A DNA stretch of 38,597 nucleotides from an uncultured Verrucomicrobiae bacterium (GCA_963788655.1 CAWBHS010000115.1:1-38597), one strand, 5' to 3'; positions 15,001 to 30,000 are shown, numbered from the stretch's first letter. A program made the numbers.

Positions 15001-18000
15001 GCAGCGTTGCGGAAACATGTTCATCGTCCCGTCCCCCGTGTGGCTGGCGAAGATGAACGCGTGGTGCTGGCTCGTTTTTCCGATCAGCACGTCCTTGAAA
15101 CTGCTTCCGTCCAAGTCCGGTACGGGTTGCCCGCCGGCCAATTCCACGAACAGCGGCGTGAGATCGGCAAAGGAAATCATCGCGTCGGTGGTTGCTCCGG
15201 CCGGCACCACGCCGGGCCAGCACACGATGAACGGCACCCGCAAGCCGGTGTCGTAACAGGTCCATTTGCAGTGCGGCCATTCGGCGCCTTGATCGGTCGT
15301 GTAAATCACCATCGTGTTCGCGCCCCAGAAACCATGTCGCTTCAACGACGCCATCACCTCGCCCACACGCGTATCGACGGTCGTGATGTCTTGATAATAA
15401 TTGGCCAGGGCCCGGCGCGTTTTCGGGGTATCGACCATGATGGGCGGCAGCGGCAATTGCGCCGGGTCGTATATCCGGTTCTTCTCCCACACCACGTGCG
15501 GGCCATCGTCGCCGAGCAGCAGACAGAGCGGCTGGTTGGGATGCTCGCGGCGATGCGCGGCCAGGAAGGCATCCACCTGGCGCGGATCCAATCCCTCGGC
15601 GCGGTAACGGCGATTAATCGCCGGATTCTTCGGCAGCGTGGCCCGCAGCACCTCCCAGTCAAAGACCGACTTCGGGCGCACATCGGTCTTGTTGGCGGCG
15701 ACAACTCGGTAGCCGAGAGCCTGGAGATACGAGGGCAAGGATTTGAGGTCAGGCCGGCAATCCGTGTGATTGCCCATGGTGCCGTTGCGGGCCGAGTACA
15801 AGCCGGTGAACAGAATGGCGCGGGAAGGCGAGCAGGTCGGTGAGCCGGCAAAGGCGCGCGTGAAGCGCAGTCCTTCCCGCGCCAAAGCATCGATATTGGG
15901 CGTATGAATTACTTCATTGCCATAGCAGCCGACGAAGTCCACGCCATGATCGTCGGACAGATAAAGGATGATGTTGGGGCGCCGAGGCGGATCCGGCTGT
16001 TTCAGTGGCGGAAGGTCGGCAGCGTGCAGGGTTCCCCACATGGGCAACAGACAAAATGGGATGATGAAGCAGGATTTCATGGGCTGGATTCCTTTCGACA
16101 TTGGAATGGGATCCGTCGCGTCGTCCGAATGAACGCGACGATACCGAACGCGTGCTGCGGAGCCATCACCGCATGAATACGGCTCGGCTCAGGAAATTGA
16201 TCTTTCACAAGCACAGTTTCGAGCCTACCCACAATGGCCGCACGGTTTCCAGTGCTTGCTCGGTCTAATCAAGTCTCACGGGACGATTGTTCTGATTGCA
16301 CGTCGTTTGTCGCTCCACTTGGACGCAGTTTGCACCATTGCACCAAAGACGGCATTTACTTGACTTAAATCAACGCACCGGACCGCTGCTCCTCGTTATC
16401 GTCCAGTCATGAACAAATGTATTGAAGCAATGATGCGGGAGCACGACCTGATCGTACAGGTGCTGGCCTCGTTGCAGGACTGGACGGAACAACATCGGGC
16501 GGGCGGCGTTCCCATCCGTCAGGATCTGGCGGACTTCGGCCGGTTCTTCCGCGATTTTGCCGACAAGTGTCACCACGGCAAAGAAGAGGACCGGCTGTTT
16601 GTCAAAATGGTCGAGAGTGGGTTTCCCCAGGATGCAGGACCGATCGCGGTGATGCTCGCCGAACATGATGAGGGCCGCGCGGAAGTGCGGGGCTTGCTCA
16701 AGATCGGCGCGGGCACCGGACCGGTTACCGAGGCGGAAAAAGCGAGCGCAGTCGAATACGCCAGTCGGCTCGTGCCGCTGCTCTATGCGCATATTCAAAA
16801 GGAAAACAACATCCTTTACCCGATGGCGCAACAGGCCATTCGCGCCGATGAGTTCGCGCGTCTGGATCAGGATTGCGAAGCCTTTGACCGCCACGTCAGT
16901 GAGACCTTGGATGTTGGCGGACTCAAAGATCTCGCCACGGACCTGAGGCGGCGTTTCCCGGCGGACCCCGCTCGCCTCGCGCAGCATGGAGGGTGTGGTG
17001 CCTGCCATCCCAGCGCCCAGCACGCATAAAGGACAAACGAGACGAATCCTTGAATTGGATCAACGCACCTTTGAGGTCACCTCGTTGGCTTCGGAACGAC
17101 TGAGATGGCATGATGCAACGTGAACAACATTCGTTGACTGCCCTCGAAACCTTGGCTTCACCTCGCGGCAACAGTACGCGGCGCTTGCTCCGATTAGTTG
17201 CCGCCGGTTCTCTGCTGCTGATGGGGACGACGCTCTCAACTCACGGGGCCGCGTCACTAGCAGCCGCCGTTCTGTCCCAGTCCAAGGATCCTTCCACCAA
17301 CACTGTTCCTTTACCGACCGAAACGGCTTCGACAAACACGGACCTGGCCGCGGCGCGTTTCGCGACCACCTGCGCCGGCTGCCACAGTCTCACCGCCAAG
17401 CTGACAGGTCCACCGCTCGCGCCGGTCAGTGCCTGGCCGATGGAGCAATTAAAAACCGCGATCAAGCTCATGGAAAAAAACGTGGGGCCGCTGACGGAGG
17501 ACCAGATCACCGGACTGGCGGAGCTGCTGAAGTCGCCGAACGTGGACGAGCGCATCAAGACGGCGCAGGTCCGCATTCAGGCGCAGTTCATGGCCAAAAT
17601 GGCCCCGCCGGACGCGGCGATTGGCAAAGCGTTGTTCCTGGGTCGGCGACCGCTCCAGAACGGCGGGTTGGAATGTTCGGCCTGCCATACGGCCGGGAGC
17701 TTTGGCGGCAATCTGGGGCCGGACCTCGATGGAGTTTACGCCAAGATGGGCGACATGGCGCTGGTGTCGGCCATCGAAAAGGCGGCGTTCAAGGTCATGG
17801 AACCGGCCTACCGCTACAAACCCGTAACAACGCAGGAAGCAATGCATCTAGCGAAATATTTTTCCACCCTCGATCCGAAGGCGCCGGCGACGGGTCCCCT
17901 GCCCTACGCCCCGGTGGGCGCCGGTTGCGCGTTGGCCGGTCTGGTCAGCATGGTGATCTATTACCGCCGGGGGCGGTCGGGCCGAACGCGCACCCTCCAA

Positions 18001-27000: not shown

Positions 27001-30000
27001 CGCGGCTTGTTGAGTATTTCGGGCCTTCGATCTTCGAGGTTCTTTCGAATGTCGGATTTCGGCGTTCGGATTTCTGGGCTCATCACTGCCTTCGTGCTCC
27101 TCGCGGCCCCTTCGCTCCACGCCTATCCCGAATTCCGCGCCTTCATCGTCCAGCATTCTGGCCGGCCGGTGGATTGCGCCATGTGCCACGTTAGTCACGA
27201 CGGCCCGCAAGGCACTGGCCCGGGACAGATCGGCAGCCTGACACCCGCCGGACTGGAAGCGCTGGGTCGCGCCAGGACGGCCTTTGCCCCGGGGTCGAAG
27301 GCGGAAAACCCGATCCTCAACGCCTTCGGGAATCATATCATCCAGAGCATTGGCCTGACCAAGTTTCGTGAACTCCGGCTGATGCCCGCGGAGTTGGCGA
27401 AGGTTCTGCCGCCGGACAGCGACCTCGATGGCGACGGCATCTCCGACGTGCAGGAATACCTGGATGGCACCAGCCCCGTGGACAAGGACAGCGGCCTGCC
27501 GTGGCTGCTTTTCAAAAACAACTTCAAGCGAAATTTATCCGAGATTTTCCTGACCCTCGCGGCAACGGCAGCCGGACTTTACGGCCTCAGCCACCTGCTC
27601 CGCGGCTTCGCGAAGGCCACCGAAGTGACCTCGGAAGACGAAGAGGAACCCGGGCTGGAGGCAATTGAATCGAGACCGTCCTGAACCTCAATCCATGCAT
27701 CGGAAGACACGACGACTATGAAAACATCCAGATCGGAAACTGAAAGTGCGGCGCGGGTGCGTGGCACCCCTTCACAGGGACTATTTGGCGCCACGCTGGG
27801 CTTCTTTATCGGCTTCGCGGCCGTGGCGCTGTTCGGTCCCACCGCCAACAAGTTCAAGGAAGTGATGCACTTGACTCCGGTCATGGTGGGGTTCCTGGTA
27901 GCGATGCCCAGCCTTTCGGGGTCGCTGCTGCGCATCCCCTTCTCCGCGTGGGTGGACACCGATGGCGGGCGCAAACCTTTTCTGGTGCTGTTGGGACTCG
28001 CCATTGTGGGCATGGCTGGGCTGGCCTTCGTGGTTTCGTTCCTCTACCCGAACCGTCTCACGCCGGAGCTCTACCCGTTGTTGCTGTTGCTGGGTTTGTT
28101 CTGCGGAGCGGGCATCGCCACGTTCTCCGTGGGCATCAGCCAAGTTTCCTATTGGTATCCCAAGGAGCGCCAGGGCAGCGCGCTGGCCACGTACGGCGGT
28201 CTGGGCAATCTCGCCCCAGGGATCTTTTCGTTCCTCATCCCGGTGGCGCTGGGGTCAATCGGACTGGCTGGCTCCTACTGGGCCTGGTGCCTGTTCCTTG
28301 TCATTGGCACCGCGCTGTACTTCATGACCGGCCGGAACGCCTGGTATTTTCAACTGCGCTCCAAGGGGCTTTCCCGCGAAAACGCCCGAACAACAGCGGG
28401 TGAGCGGGGCCAGGAAATTTTCCCTTCGGGCAATGTCAAAACCAGTCTCCTGATTTCAGCCAAGGTCTGGAAAACCTGGGCACTGGTCGCGATTTATTTC
28501 ACGACGTTCGGCGGCTTCCTGGCCCTGACGGCCTGGTTCCCGACTTACTGGAAATCTTTCTTCGCCGTCAGCGCCGTCACCGCCGGCCTGCTGACCGCCG
28601 CCTATTCGATCCTCACCTCGCTCGTGCGTGTGGGAGGAGGCAGGCTTTCTGATCGAATCGGTGGGGAACGGACGGCCATCATGGCGCTGGGCACGATGCT
28701 GGTCGGCGCGGTGGTGATGACCTTCTCGCACACCTTCGCCATCTCGATTGCCGCCGCCCTCTTGATGGCGGTGGGCATGGGCGTGTCCAACGCGGCGGTG
28801 TTCAAGCTGGTGCCCCAGGAAGTGCCGCGCGCCGTCGGCGGAGCGGCCGGCTGGGTCGGTGGCCTCGGCGCCTTCGGCGGGTTCAGCATCCCGCCAATTC
28901 TGGGCGTGATTGTCACGCGGCAAGGTTTGGATGGCTACGCGTTTGGATTCATTGTATTTGTGGTGGTGAGCGGCCTCTCCTTGTTGCTGGCCATGGTGTT
29001 GAAACAAACGCATGCGCGGACAGTCCGCCGAAGCAACGTGGTTGCCAGCGCGGGATCCCTGGCCTCCAACCACGCCAAGTGATCGAAGGAGGCTTGGGAA
29101 TTCAATTGTTGAAGCAATAAAGAACATGATTCGCGTTTGTCATCTGTTCATTTCACCCGGGCATAATTACTTCGGCCATCACGAACTGCCGGCGGGCACG
29201 CATCCCACGCTGGAGGTGGACCAGGCCGATTGCGTCGCCGGAAGGGGCATTCGGAGTGACCGGTTTTTCGACTTCAAAGAGAACTACCAAGGGCAAATCA
29301 CGTTCTTTTCCATGGACGTGTTCGATGCACTGCGCCGGGAATTGAACCTGCCGGAGGCGGCGCCGGCGGCTACGCGACGCAATGCGTTCGTTAGCGGCGT
29401 GGACCCGAACGCGCTCATCGGCGCTGAATTCGCAATCCAACGTGTACGCTTCAAGGGGATTTGCGAATGCAAACCCTGTTATTGGATGAACTCGGCGCTC
29501 GGCCCGGGCGCGGAGGAGTGGCTCAAAGGGCGCGGCGGTTTGCGGGCGCGCATTCTGACTGACGGCATTTTGCAACGGGACGCATGAACTTCAGCGCGGT
29601 CATACTGGCGGGAGGGGAATCGCGGCGCATGGGCCGCGACAAAGCTTGGCTGGAATTTGAAGGTCAACCACTCATCGCCCGCAGCCTGGCGGTGGCGTGG
29701 GAACTGGGTGCCACTGAAGTTTTCATTTCGGGACGCGTCGGCGAAGACTACTCCGCGCTGAACTGCCCGGTGCTCTTCGACTTGGAACCCGGCTTCGGTC
29801 CGCTCGGCGGCATCGAGCGCGGACTGCACGCCACCACGTCCCCCTTGCTGCTGGTGCTGGCGGTGGATTTGCCGCAAATGACGGCGGATTTTCTGCGCAA
29901 GCTGCTGGCAAAGTGCGATTCGCTGACCGGCGCAATGGCCAAGCTGGACGGCCGGTTCGAACCGCTGGTCGCCATCTATCCGAAACGCTGTCACGCCATC

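Follow-up and report, generated by a model that had tools for sequence, protein, structure and literature searches.

The nar operon

The window analysed here is a whole 38,597-nt stretch of DNA from an uncultured Verrucomicrobiae bacterium (GCA_963788655.1, CAWBHS010000115.1). Between positions 17110 and 29082 of its plus strand we identified eight genes, in the order dihaem cytochrome c, narG, narH, narJ, NarI-Rieske, cytochrome b, monohaem cytochrome c and narK (Table 1). Gene calls and profile matches agree with the extent and composition given in an earlier note on this DNA. NarG and NarH score well above their equivalog cut-offs (1084.15 bits for TIGR01580 and 524.05 bits for TIGR01660). 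Inspection of the NarG N-terminus revealed no twin-arginine export signal (RRxFLK motif), in line with the same note, and NarG should therefore face the cytoplasm. The narJ product exceeds the PF02613 cut-off (22.2 bits) and falls below that of NCBIfam TIGR00684 (47.1 bits against 59.35); narJ occupies the same position in related loci. Its start is uncertain, the frame being open from 23077 and the ATG at 23143 overlapping the narH stop. NarK matches TIGR00886 (E-value = 6.2e-52, 176.9 bits) below the cut-off of 311.7.

The cytochrome b gene most likely starts at the ATG at 25557 rather than in a longer TTG frame from 25284, and the tabulated frame of the monohaem cytochrome c is likewise the most likely one. 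The spacer between these two genes is unusually long because it holds a copy of a dispersed palindromic repeat. This repeat gives 57 matches in the same genome, on many contigs and many on both strands, and is no part of the nitrate reductase machine. The MOSC-domain and mobA-like genes, which follow the operon in several related loci too, are probably accessory and concerned with molybdenum cofactor supply. Further downstream, the window looks fragmented at 31.5-37.7 kb.

Table 1. Genes and sequence features of the operon and its 3' flank
Feature	Position	Strand	Description
NarC-like dihaem cytochrome c (g08155)	17110..18015	+	301 aa; Pfam cytochrome c, two CxxCH
narG, catalytic molybdoenzyme subunit	18017..21649	+	1210 aa; Molybdopterin domains; TIGR01580 1524.8 bits
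narH, iron-sulfur subunit	21653..23146	+	497 aa; Fer4_11 + Nitr_red_bet_C; TIGR01660 643.9 bits
narJ-like assembly chaperone	about 23143..24231	+	low-complexity insertions; PF02613 31.1 bits
NarI-Rieske fusion (g08159)	24215..25540	+	441 aa; PF02665 + PF00355 + TIGR00351
NarI domain of fusion	aa 1-225		five helices, haem His57/67/185/203
Twin-arginine-type motif SRREFVKG (aa 239-246) and sixth membrane helix (about aa 245-262)	24929..25000	+	sequence
Rest of fusion			Arg-rich cytoplasmic linker, helix 6, long periplasmic linker helix (aa 276-305), Rieske domain (about aa 306-441)
Rieske [2Fe-2S] ligand boxes CTHLGC (aa 350-355) and CPCH (aa 369-372)	25262..25330	+	two disulfide cysteines included; sequence
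Cytochrome b (g08160)	25557..26657	+	366 aa; about seven helices; ATG after AGGAG
Dispersed palindromic repeat copy	26832..26901	.	about 70 bases; spacer between cytochrome b and monohaem cytochrome c
Monohaem membrane cytochrome c (g08161)	27049..27684	+	211 aa; one CAMCH, signal peptide, C-terminal membrane helix
narK-type nitrate/nitrite transporter	27718..29082	+	454 aa; MFS_1; TIGR00886
MOSC-domain gene and mobA-like molybdenum cofactor guanylyltransferase gene	29012..30162	+	adjoin operon 3' end

The NarI-Rieske fusion protein

As the earlier note had claimed, a NarI and a Rieske protein are joined in one polypeptide. PF02665 matches residues 7 to 221 (E-value = 2.3e-61) and PF00355 residues 312 to 391 (E-value = 5.1e-7), and the protein passes the NarI equivalog cut-off (TIGR00351, 130.8 bits against 105.55). 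The E. coli NarGHI structure (PDB 1q16) has homologous NarG, NarH and NarI; the NarI alignment covers residues 5 to 219 and pairs all four proposed haem histidines with E. coli NarI His56/66/187/205. E. coli NarI stops after helix 5, whereas here the protein runs on into the Rieske domain, in which both ligand boxes are present as described. The hydrophobic anchor noted between the domains is also there, preceded by the twin-arginine-type motif. This sixth helix must bring the Rieske domain to the periplasm. It is weakly hydrophobic, below a threshold that all five NarI helices reach. Loop charges (positive-inside) agree with a 5+1-helix arrangement that leaves the Rieske domain on the outer side. 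In the structure model (pTM 0.48) the pLDDT is below 50 over much of residues 210-272, so that domain-domain placement is left open. According to the available text of PMC5449189, the actinobacterial three-helix Rieske protein and other dual Sec/Tat proteins have the same layout: several Sec-type helices come first, then a twin-arginine motif and a final helix of weak hydrophobicity with positive charges after it, and last an external cofactor domain. Here, by comparison, the preceding helices form a complete dihaem NarI; in that text the term "NarI" occurs 0 times and "nitrate reductase" once.

The functional residues are conserved among fused proteins. All four NarI haem histidines are kept in 45/47, the two exceptions lacking NarGH, and C350, H352, C355, C369, C371 and H372 in all 47. 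The linker arginines R240 and R241 are invariant in an alignment of 38 sequences; in the larger set, position 241 is R in 47/47 and position 240 is R in 45 and K in 2. The fragmented look of the 31.5-37.7 kb region indicates that the assembly is not flawless, and an assembly, frameshift or gene-calling artefact had to be considered. We give this reading next to no credence. The same unbroken frame runs through each of the 119 other homologue clusters listed (all carrying both Pfam domains, a count the earlier note had used to the same end), and is found in 21 species genomes and in 39 metagenome loci drawn from many records; the linker residues, twin-arginine motif included, are conserved. The recurrence of one frame in these clusters, genomes and loci refutes an artefact for practical purposes. 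As judged from these sequences, the fusion is genuine and under selection.

Three other NarI-Rieske architectures (P0130, P0146 and P0169) were identified. Since they use Rieske domains of different types, their sequences point to independent origins of NarI-Rieske fusions. Among relatives, P0129 and L081 carry the Rieske type of this operon joined to a counterpart of the dihaem cytochrome's haem-1 domain (43% identity, E-value = 4.8e-15).

Conservation of the operon

Wherever the sequence suffices, the operon order recurs, both in the 21 verrucomicrobial MAG loci and in 39 metagenome loci at greater distance, except in two loci without NarGH (L102 and L103), which account for the misses in the distant counts below. 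In the verrucomicrobial loci with enough sequence, the fusion is followed by cytochrome b (19/19) and the monohaem cytochrome c (18/18) and preceded by narG-narH-narJ (18/18), with the dihaem cytochrome c before narG (17/17). Distant fused loci (44-55% identity) exhibit narJ in 29/31, narH in 20/22, narG in 15/16, the dihaem cytochrome c in 16/16, cytochrome b in 30/30 and the monohaem cytochrome c in 27/27. We thus reproduced the neighbour counts of the earlier note and its 21 species-genome loci, all labelled Verrucomicrobiota. The family is not limited to that phylum, however: distant fused clusters bear the MAG labels Bacteroidota, Spirochaetota and 'Candidatus Eisenbacteria'. None of the carriers seen has been cultured. 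The Rieske/cytochrome b/monohaem cytochrome c module also occurs without nar genes, none being found within 10 kb upstream in three loci (L049, L057, L058) or within 8.9 kb in a fourth (L099); it can therefore serve other acceptors.

The genome contains a single NarI and no paralogue of the operon's Rieske type. The four other Rieske/cytochrome b pairs counted previously were found again. Another bc module of this genome adjoins caa3 oxidase genes, which suggests that this organism tends to dedicate one module to each acceptor.

Cytochromes of the operon

The first gene had been listed simply as a cytochrome c. Its product is a c-type cytochrome with a signal peptide and in fact two haem sites, CAGCH (aa 88) with Met121 in a haem-1 domain and CSACH (aa 189) with Met230 in a haem-2 domain; across 24 sequences neither the CxxCH motifs nor the two methionines vary. 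The C-terminus is a membrane helix with a basic tail. In a plasmid collection the only matches were 14 Thermus plasmids (31% identity over residues 82-259, which span both haem domains; E-value = 4e-13). In the one record inspected of these 14 (H10), the match is a c-type cytochrome gene directly upstream of narG, and by sequence g08155 is homologous to the dihaem NarC of Thermus. The available text of PMC7694296 describes the same arrangement in the narCGHJIK operon of Thermus thermophilus, where narG immediately follows the gene for a membrane-anchored dihaem cytochrome c, and reports that NarC binds NarI in two-hybrid assays. Unlike the present operon, the Thermus region inspected contains no Rieske or cytochrome b gene.

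A complex model of the NarI-Rieske protein with the dihaem cytochrome c gave an ipSAE of 0.62 (runs 0.62, 0.64 and 0.62), the best control reaching 0.01. At least 93% of the contacts recur between runs, and the partner's pLDDT is at least 79. The mark used for such models is reached by 116/157 solved complexes and 2/215 mismatched pairs and, our own alignments having been used, applies only roughly. The modelled interface comprises, in NarI, residues 50-55, 78-103 and 145-179 (periplasmic loops and helix 3) and, in the cytochrome, residues 178-202 (including CxxCH 189-193), 228-233 and the C-terminal helix 264-285. The haem-2 domain is thus predicted to lie over the periplasmic face of NarI. 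The model covers this one pair, and the Rieske domain takes no part in the interface.

Cytochrome b exhibits the haem ligands His95/109 and His204/219, the PEWY motif (aa 294) reported earlier, and Y-x-G-G at the site where haem-cn-binding cytochromes b have CxGG. The four histidines, PEWY and Y-x-G-G are each kept in 62/62 members of this family, which a long, fully supported branch separates from the genome's own paralogues.

In 57 loci the monohaem cytochrome c comes after cytochrome b, and its residues C43, C46 and H47 never vary. It has a predicted mature N-terminus YPEF, a calcium-loop-like motif SDLDGDGISD and a structure model of pLDDT 92.2. It matches no Pfam or NCBIfam family, has no convincing relative among solved structures, and falls in an unnamed family (Atlas cluster 'hypothetical protein', 280 members). 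The single haem site claimed for it stands, with the correction that the protein is likely the c1/f-equivalent of the bc module, that is, the module's own c subunit.

Proposed electron path to nitrate

That a cytoplasm-facing NarGH sits on a NarI joined covalently to a Rieske protein, served by a dedicated cytochrome b and by c-type cytochromes, is well supported by conserved residues, positive-inside topology, kept gene order, recurrent fusions and a complex model passing its controls. This structural part of the hard-wired Nar-bc module of the earlier note holds; the Q-cycle-fed nitrate reduction that went with it is something we infer. We put at roughly 50% the probability that the eight genes build one membrane supercomplex in which Qo-derived electrons reach NarGH through the Rieske cluster, the c-haems and the NarI haems; the formation of one complex, as well as the direction and route of the electrons, are what we infer from the evidence above. 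NarGH would sit on the NarI domain, whose C-terminus would lead through the twin-arginine-targeted helix 6 to the Rieske domain of the dedicated Rieske/cytochrome b complex. Menaquinol would be oxidised at the Qo site of cytochrome b. One electron would pass to the Rieske cluster, the monohaem cytochrome c and then the two haems of the NarC-like cytochrome, with its haem-2 domain capping NarI, and move inward via haems bD and bP to NarH and NarG, nitrate being reduced in the cytoplasm. The second electron would be recycled to the Qi site by way of haems bL and bH. NarI would mainly act as a transmembrane wire and not as a quinol dehydrogenase. Against such a path, the step between the c-type haems and haem bD may run uphill, should the potentials resemble those of E. 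coli.

In E. coli, NarI Lys86 takes part in quinol binding, and NarI oxidises quinol there; Lys86Ala mutant entries (PDB 1y5i and 1y5n) are among the structure matches. The corresponding column is hydrophobic in 47/47 fused forms (Ala in this operon), whereas it is Arg in Thermus NarI and in 17/30 of the nearest unfused NarI-family representatives. This lends indirect support to Q-cycle feeding, as far as the alignment goes, and so does the modelled seat of the cytochrome's haem-2 domain above NarI. The NarI quinol site may still work, because the column lies in a loop of uncertain alignment, some fused forms have Lys or Arg elsewhere in this loop, and a basic residue is also missing in 13/30 of the unfused relatives.

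In a parallel arrangement, the components would co-assemble, yet NarI would still oxidise quinol for NarGH. The fusion would then provide no more than stoichiometric co-assembly or membrane anchoring, and the bc module and the NarC-like cytochrome would hand electrons outward to further acceptors in the periplasm or membrane, forming a branching hub like that of Thermus. We regard this as possible, if on the doubtful side. It is consistent with a NarI domain that retains both haems and passes its equivalog cut-off, with the modules found without nar genes and with the per-acceptor habit suggested by the caa3 locus. In the available text of PMC7694296, moreover, Thermus NarC is suggested to take electrons from Nar and deliver them to nitrite and NO reductases, unlike in the path proposed here. 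The missing basic residue in the Lys86 column of all 47 fused forms argues the other way, and anchoring alone hardly explains the repeated fusion of NarI to different Rieske types. Candidate partners are also scarce: in the genome (86% complete) there is no match to NirK, one match to NrfA under the cut-off, and two partial propeller matches (about 90 residues) to cd1-NirS at the cut-off, while the blank NosZ search is uninformative, its control being equally blank. A genome without alternative partners counts for the proposed wiring.

That wiring has relatives in other forms. According to the available text of PMC7931247, Streptomyces coelicolor Nar1 requires the bcc-aa3 supercomplex: it relies on a Rieske/cytochrome b complex that co-purifies with it and that includes, besides a dihaem cytochrome c, an alternative cytochrome b. 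The authors propose transfer from QcrC (dihaem c) to NarI haem bD, with 4 instead of 2 H+ per 2 e-. The same electron path in this proposal indirectly supports, by analogy, the Q-cycle reading. There, the proteins and loci are separate and the bc complex is common to the oxidase, whereas here NarI and Rieske are one polypeptide, with cytochrome b and both cytochromes c in the nar operon. In haloarchaea, nar genes also cluster with Rieske/cytochrome b genes and a bc complex is modelled to feed Nar, but NarGH is outward-facing, NarI is absent and a b-type cytochrome links to NarH (PMC3509893). The present operon speaks against one statement quoted from that paper, if taken as a general rule. A bc-type complex feeds an anaerobic terminal reductase also in the Qcr-dependent nitrate and N2O respiration of Campylobacter and Wolinella, with reductases that are periplasmic and soluble and involve neither fusion nor NarI (PMC6195509, in its available text; cited in PMC7931247).

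NarG-type enzymes are reversible in principle. The operon could thus encode a cytoplasm-facing, Nitrobacter-like nitrite oxidoreductase, with electrons leaving via NarI and the NarC-like cytochrome and the bc module serving reverse flow to quinone; a very similar cluster with a NarC homologue is described for Nitrobacter in the available text of PMC7694296. We consider this very improbable: NarG and NarH pass nitrate reductase equivalog cut-offs (though a cytoplasmic Nxr might too), and the genome, with sulfatase and glycoside hydrolase genes near its respiratory loci, looks like that of a polysaccharide-degrading heterotroph.

If electrons do reach NarGH through the Q-cycle, each pair of electrons would yield about 4 charges rather than 2. 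The operon therefore suggests a nitrate respiration that conserves more energy than the textbook enzyme.

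The nitrate reductase operon and its fused gamma subunit

The genes, domains and coordinates re-derived for the window (see the table) agree with the earlier note, which had described a nitrate reductase operon whose gamma subunit joins a complete NarI to a Rieske iron-sulfur protein. This observation is correct, and the reality of both the fusion and the operon is a near certainty. An artefact can be excluded for practical purposes: as the same note had argued, both Pfam domains are carried by every one of the 119 other listed homologue clusters. The two c-type cytochromes that it listed on either side of the enzyme are also present, with some refinement. 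The upstream one is dihaem, with a signal peptide at its start and a membrane helix at its C-terminus. A signal peptide and a C-terminal helix can likewise be added for the downstream one, which has a single CAMCH.

NarG and NarH pass the equivalog cut-offs of the respiratory nitrate reductase of the cytoplasm-facing type. The N-terminus of NarG exhibits neither an RRxFLK-type motif nor a hydrophobic stretch, and an 11-residue stretch (letters not shown) is found at aa 33. From this stretch and the lack of an export signal, we infer that the enzyme faces the cytoplasm. MOSC and mobA-like genes come after the operon.

Features of the window and of three other loci
Feature	Position	Strand	Evidence
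Sensor histidine kinase, large	11182-14565	-	Cache, HAMP, several PAS, HisKA_3
Hemerythrin-domain gene	16409-17029
c-type cytochrome, dihaem	17110-18015	+	CxxCH at aa 88 and 189; signal peptide; C-terminal membrane helix
narG	18017-21649	+	TIGR01580 1524.8 bits (cut-off 1084.15)
narH	21653-23146	+	TIGR01660 643.9 (cut-off 524.05)
narJ-like	~23143-24231	+	PF02613 31.1 (cut-off 22.2); TIGR00684 47.1, below cut-off 59.35
NarI-Rieske fusion, 441 aa	24215-25540	+	PF02665 aa 7-221, E 2.3e-61; PF00355 aa 312-391, E 5.1e-7
Cytochrome b	25557-26657	+	ATG after AGGAG, 17 bases past the fusion stop
Spacer, cytochrome b to monohaem c	26660-27045		palindromic core ~26832-26901
Monohaem cytochrome c	27049-27684	+	one CAMCH; signal peptide; C-terminal helix
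narK	27718-29082	+
2-oxoacid dehydrogenase complex genes and ilvD	31549-37736		partial Pfam profiles, short frames
Locus L102	5231-6529		NarI-Rieske, cytochrome b, monohaem c
Locus L103	6405-10528		NarI-Rieske, cytochrome b, monohaem c
Locus L038 (G000:C98)	7156-10121	-	Rieske/cytochrome b pair, then bd-subunit-I-like protein

Several other features of the window deserve mention. Gly/Pro-rich low-complexity stretches flank the chaperone core of the narJ-like protein, which has roughly double the usual length. Between the cytochrome b and monohaem cytochrome genes there is a spacer of about 390 bases; in related loci it measures roughly 10-150. Its core is a palindrome about 70 bases long that recurs in the same genome, the 57 matches being spread over many contigs and many of them occurring on both strands; it looks like a REP- or MITE-like dispersed element, and an Rfam search of the spacer gave chance-level matches only. 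A hemerythrin-domain gene directly precedes the operon, and hemerythrin genes also occur near the module in two related loci (L019, L099); the product may be a partner in oxygen or NO sensing or protection. A nitrate or oxygen sensor for the operon could be provided by the large histidine kinase, whose gene lies about 2.5 kb upstream. Farther downstream, genes for a 2-oxoacid dehydrogenase complex (E1, transketolase-like, lipoyl/E2 and E3) and ilvD match only partial profiles in short frames, which suggests frameshifts, pseudogenes or assembly errors.

Architecture of the NarI-Rieske protein

The NarI domain of the fusion exceeds the cut-off of the NarI family model (TIGR00351, 130.8 against 105.55). 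Its match among solved structures is E. coli NarI (1q16_C, E-value = 3.7e-24), aa 5-219 aligning with 4-221, and His57, His67, His185 and His203 correspond to the E. coli residues His56, His66, His187 and His205. After its five hydrophobic helices the protein has an Arg-rich stretch with SRREFVKG (aa 239-246) at its end, then a less hydrophobic sixth helix (about aa 245-262), the hydrophobicity of which lies below the threshold applied. A long helix (aa 276-305) comes next, and then a Rieske fold, which contains CTHLGC and CPCH. The Rieske boxes CxHxGC and CxCH are thus present together with the disulfide cysteines, on an anchor of the twin-arginine type. The best solved matches of this domain are Rieske proteins of bc and b6f complexes (1nyk_A, E-value = 3.6e-7).

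The N-terminus of E. coli NarI is outside and its C-terminus inside, and the loop charges of the fusion agree with this topology. With the NarI C-terminus inside, helix 6 would place the Rieske domain outside, where the Rieske proteins of bc complexes work. Residues invariant in 38 aligned homologues include the four haem histidines, Arg240, Arg241, Lys264 and the Rieske residues Cys350, His352, Cys355, Cys369, Cys371 and His372. In a set of 47 fused proteins (46 full-length fused genes from the loci and that of the window), none deviates at Arg241 or at the six Rieske ligands, position 240 is R in 45 and K in two, and the NarI haem histidines are kept in all but the proteins of L102 and L103. 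The dual Sec/Tat membrane proteins described in PMC5449189 have the same layout: helices of the Sec type, then a twin-arginine motif and a weak last helix, with positive charges and a cofactor domain behind it. The fusion protein is, by its predicted layout, a candidate for the small class that needs both Sec and Tat. Term searches of PMC5449189 returned "NarI" zero times and "nitrate reductase" once.

Distribution and recurrence of the fusion

Among the candidates scored, 435 proteins match at an E-value of 1e-5 or better, and an exhaustive search of representative proteins yields fused forms at 35-46% identity (P0121, P0122, P0123, P0125, P0146 and others). The databases name these proteins plainly "nitrate reductase gamma subunit". 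The earlier note had placed its 21 species-genome loci in Verrucomicrobiota. This holds, all 21 being so labelled; the family apparently reaches further, the source names of more distant clusters being MAG labels of Bacteroidota (P0121), Spirochaetota (P0123) and "Candidatus Eisenbacteria" (P0113). Within Verrucomicrobiota, a strong NarI match occurs in only two of 401 sampled genomes (that of the window and G008), and in both the open frame is as long as the fused form (444-448 aa).

Gene order is conserved. In the verrucomicrobial loci, the order noted earlier is confirmed: cytochrome b follows the fusion in 19 of 19 loci with downstream sequence, the monohaem cytochrome in 18 of 18, and narGHJ precede it in 18 of 18. 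The dihaem cytochrome gene stands before narG in 17 of 17. A metagenome scan with a pattern chosen to avoid the verrucomicrobial type gave 58 loci, 39 of which have NarI fused to a Rieske domain. Counting only those of the 39 with enough sequence, narJ (29/31), narH (20/22), narG (15/16) and the dihaem cytochrome (16/16) are found upstream, and cytochrome b (30/30) and the monohaem cytochrome (27/27) downstream.

The gene-order misses are L102 and L103, both of the P0125 type, in which the available upstream sequence (5.2 and 9.2 kb, respectively) contains no narH or narJ. The P0125-type fusion is preceded by an 8-haem cytochrome c of 918 aa (seen in L103), the end of which resembles the dihaem cytochrome. 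Proximal haem ligands are replaced in both proteins: His203 by Tyr in each, and His57 by Phe in L102. The NarI domain may have been re-used here without a nitrate reductase.

The verrucomicrobial, P0121, P0122, P0123 and P0125 fusions have in common a special type of Rieske domain, marked by YFIDY, SAKCTHLGCTV and CPCH[ILVM]S motifs and by its long linker helix. NarI is joined to other Rieske types, without the long linker, in P0130, P0146 and P0169. Of these, P0130 has a further match to the proteobacterial Rieske Tat-signal domain, and P0169 lacks both proximal-haem ligands. These different, linker-free types point, at the sequence level, to independent origins of the NarI-Rieske fusion. The special type itself has a further partner: in P0129 and locus L081 a cytochrome c domain is joined to it through two membrane helices and a twin-arginine motif, and this domain exhibits 43% identity (E-value = 4.8e-15) to the first haem domain of the dihaem cytochrome encoded in the window.

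Other fusions of NarI were also encountered, with an N-terminal cytochrome c and two extra helices (P0152, P0162), or with a C-terminal MFS transporter (P0155), SLAC1-type anion channel (P0228) or multihaem cytochrome c (P0227). NarI thus seems to be a frequent fusion partner. Open frames of about 500-757 aa upstream of some fused genes hinted at a narJ-NarI-Rieske triple fusion; for L072 this reading is rejected, the narJ match being in a different frame. P0143, seemingly a free-standing Rieske protein, is a fragment whose cluster holds a 440-aa "nitrate reductase gamma subunit".

A bc module with its own cytochromes

The remaining 19 of the 58 metagenome loci have no NarI match. In L074, L092 and L106, and to judge by their open frames also in L053 and L054, the sequence breaks off at the Rieske gene or immediately before it, and these loci say nothing on fusion. 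In the others the Rieske gene, again of the special type, stands on its own; cytochrome b comes next and then, if the sequence extends far enough, the monohaem cytochrome. The 10 kb upstream in L049, L057 and L058 and the 8.9 kb upstream in L099 are devoid of nar genes. The bc module therefore exists independently of nar genes.

The cytochrome b family exhibits the four haem histidines and a PEWY-type Qo motif in 62 of 62 sequences. By its sequence, the dedicated cytochrome b is of the long, two-haem type. All 62 sequences have Y-x-G-G at the place where b6-type cytochromes have CxGG, their covalent haem cn motif (PMC5600118). A quick tree puts the family on a long, fully supported branch apart from the paralogues of the same genome. 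One nar-free group (7 rows) is nested in a fused clade with 99% support and others are near the poorly resolved base, so that this tree leaves the ancestry of the nar-free modules undecided. The four other Rieske/cytochrome b pairs reported earlier are indeed found in the genome; one adjoins caa3 oxidase genes, others are fused or adjacent to different c-type cytochromes, and none has the special Rieske type. At locus L038 of this genome a Rieske/cytochrome b pair is followed by a 461-aa protein corresponding to the N-terminal half of cytochrome bd oxidase subunit I, with one CxxCH, which is an unusual neighbour for a bc module.

The monohaem cytochrome follows cytochrome b at a constant position in 57 loci. 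As this place is kept even in nar-free loci, it is apparently the module's own c subunit, and its position suggests a role analogous to that of cytochrome c1/f. The protein has no Pfam or NCBIfam match. A profile search of solved structures gave nothing significant (best E-value = 0.12, an EF-hand loop). Its predicted model (pLDDT 92.2) had a best Foldseek E-value of 5.9, and VIA-align returned no Z of 5 or more, aligning the C-terminal helix alone; in the Atlas it forms an unnamed cluster of its own with weak Temptin/TSP3 leads. The family alignment (A4) exhibits no invariant Met or second His as distal haem ligand; conserved in it are the motif SDLDxDGIxD, which resembles a calcium loop, and, behind an Ala-x-Ala site, the predicted mature N-terminus Tyr-Pro-Glu-Phe. 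This N-terminus and the missing distal ligand presumably recall cytochrome f, a likeness that no search supports. An apparent fusion of the monohaem cytochrome to a transporter (L019, L020, L068) was dismissed, a stop separating the two genes.

The dihaem cytochrome and its modelled contact with NarI

Searched against 72,556 plasmids, the dihaem cytochrome matches only 14 Thermus plasmids (31% identity over aa 82-259, best E-value = 4e-13). In the single record inspected, from T. thermophilus SG0.5JP17-16, the match is a c-type cytochrome gene directly upstream of narG-narH-narJ-narI-MFS. It corresponds to NarC, encoded in the narCGHJIK operon. According to PMC7694296, this membrane-bound dihaem cytochrome of the periplasm is required for the maturation of Nar, and two-hybrid assays detect its interaction with NarI. 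The dihaem cytochrome of the window is, as judged from this similarity, a NarC homologue; a gene for a membrane-bound dihaem cytochrome c directly upstream of narG is common to both systems.

We modelled the fusion protein with aa 72-301 of the dihaem cytochrome, using an alignment for each and three controls. The pair attains an ipSAE of 0.62 (0.62, 0.64 and 0.62 in the runs) against 0.01 for the best control; the mark used, reached by 116 of 157 solved complexes and two of 215 mismatched pairs, is only roughly applicable to custom alignments. At least 93% of the contacts recur between runs, and the partner pLDDT is 79 or higher. Confident contacts involve aa 50-55, 78-103 and 145-179 of NarI (two periplasmic loops and helix 3), and aa 178-202 (including CxxCH 189-193), 228-233 (around the conserved Met230) and the C-terminal helix 264-285 of the cytochrome. 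The Rieske domain is outside the modelled interface. The model puts haem 2 of the cytochrome over the outer face of NarI, above the haem of His67/His185. We know of no solved NarC-NarI complex, so the pass of the model is probably not the memory of a structure. Physical association of the operon's proteins, taken by itself, is likely.

Possible electron path to nitrate

We propose that menaquinol would be oxidised at the Qo site of the dedicated cytochrome b. The high-potential electron would pass from the Rieske centre through the monohaem cytochrome and haems 1 and 2 of the dihaem cytochrome to the distal and then the proximal haem of NarI, NarH and NarG, and the second electron through the b haems to Qi. 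The same path has been proposed for Streptomyces Nar1, which requires and co-purifies with the bcc-aa3 supercomplex; the authors of PMC7931247 compute a yield of four instead of two H+ per two electrons and consider the path feasible from menaquinol (-75 mV) to nitrate (+430 mV). The genome (86% complete), which has one NarI, offers no obvious alternative use for the operon's cytochromes: NirK has no match, NosZ has none either (its control search was also blank), NrfA matches below the cut-off, and cd1-NirS gives two partial propeller matches of about 90 residues at the cut-off.

The quinol site of NarI bears on this proposal. Lys86 of E. coli NarI, which we take to be a quinol-site residue near the distal haem, has its Lys86Ala mutant structures (1y5i, 1y5n) among the solved matches. 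The corresponding column holds Arg in Thermus NarI and in 17 of the 30 nearest unfused NarI-family representatives. In all 47 Rieske-fused proteins it is Ala (as in the window), Phe, Val, Leu, Met, Ile or Gly, never Lys or Arg, in a loop that is hard to align, in which some fused forms have Lys/Arg elsewhere and 13 of the 30 unfused relatives also lack a basic residue. The loss is a hint of an altered quinol site.

Alternatively, the two complexes might be tethered and operate in parallel, NarI still oxidising quinol and the cytochromes leading elsewhere, as proposed for Thermus NarC. Nar-free bc modules and the intact NarI domain speak for this arrangement. We regard parallel operation as rather unlikely. 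That the enzyme runs in reverse as a nitrite oxidoreductase is very improbable, though the sequence by itself would allow it; sulfatase and glycoside hydrolase genes abound in the genome, with which such a mode of operation agrees poorly. For nitrate reduction fed through a Q-cycle as proposed here, we estimate a probability of about one half.

A more comprehensive scheme is advanced tentatively, at somewhat less than even odds. NarI would have been turned from a quinol dehydrogenase into a transmembrane wire within a single hard-wired supercomplex of NarGH, NarI-Rieske, cytochrome b, monohaem c and dihaem c, probably a dimer. Nitrate would be reduced in the cytoplasm by electrons that had already gone through Qo, the charge yield being doubled to about four per two electrons. 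This state would have been reached several times by independent fusions in different phyla, and combined Sec/Tat insertion would have a new example, with six helices, in the Rieske domain.

Relation to known systems and significance

The component families are known, and Nar-bc coupling has already been hypothesised for Streptomyces. We found no description of a NarI-Rieske fusion in the open-access full texts searched, nor by term searches of PMC5449189, PMC5600118 and PMC3509893, which deal with Rieske/cytochrome b complexes or with Sec/Tat insertion and the first two of which returned no occurrence of "NarI". The haloarchaeal periplasmic Nar with NarB/NarC has an exported NarG and no NarI, whereas the window encodes a NarI and a NarG without export signal. 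The Y-x-G-G of its cytochrome b family differs from the CxGG of b6-type cytochromes.

The usual teaching on the bacterial membrane-bound nitrate reductase, as given in PMC3509893, is that of a simple redox loop in which the bc complex takes no part. The widespread NarI-Rieske operon, with its own cytochrome b and cytochromes c, constitutes genetic evidence of Q-cycle-coupled nitrate reduction in some bacteria, an idea that has so far rested on indirect work in Streptomyces spores; the fusion provides a defined, stoichiometric complex for testing it. The operon also adds a candidate to the small class of Sec- and Tat-dependent membrane proteins, and flags an uncharacterised cytochrome c family as the putative c1/f equivalent of a distinct clade of bc complexes. 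If the coupling is true, the energy yield assumed for nitrate respiration of freshwater, groundwater and soil Verrucomicrobiota, and of others, would change.
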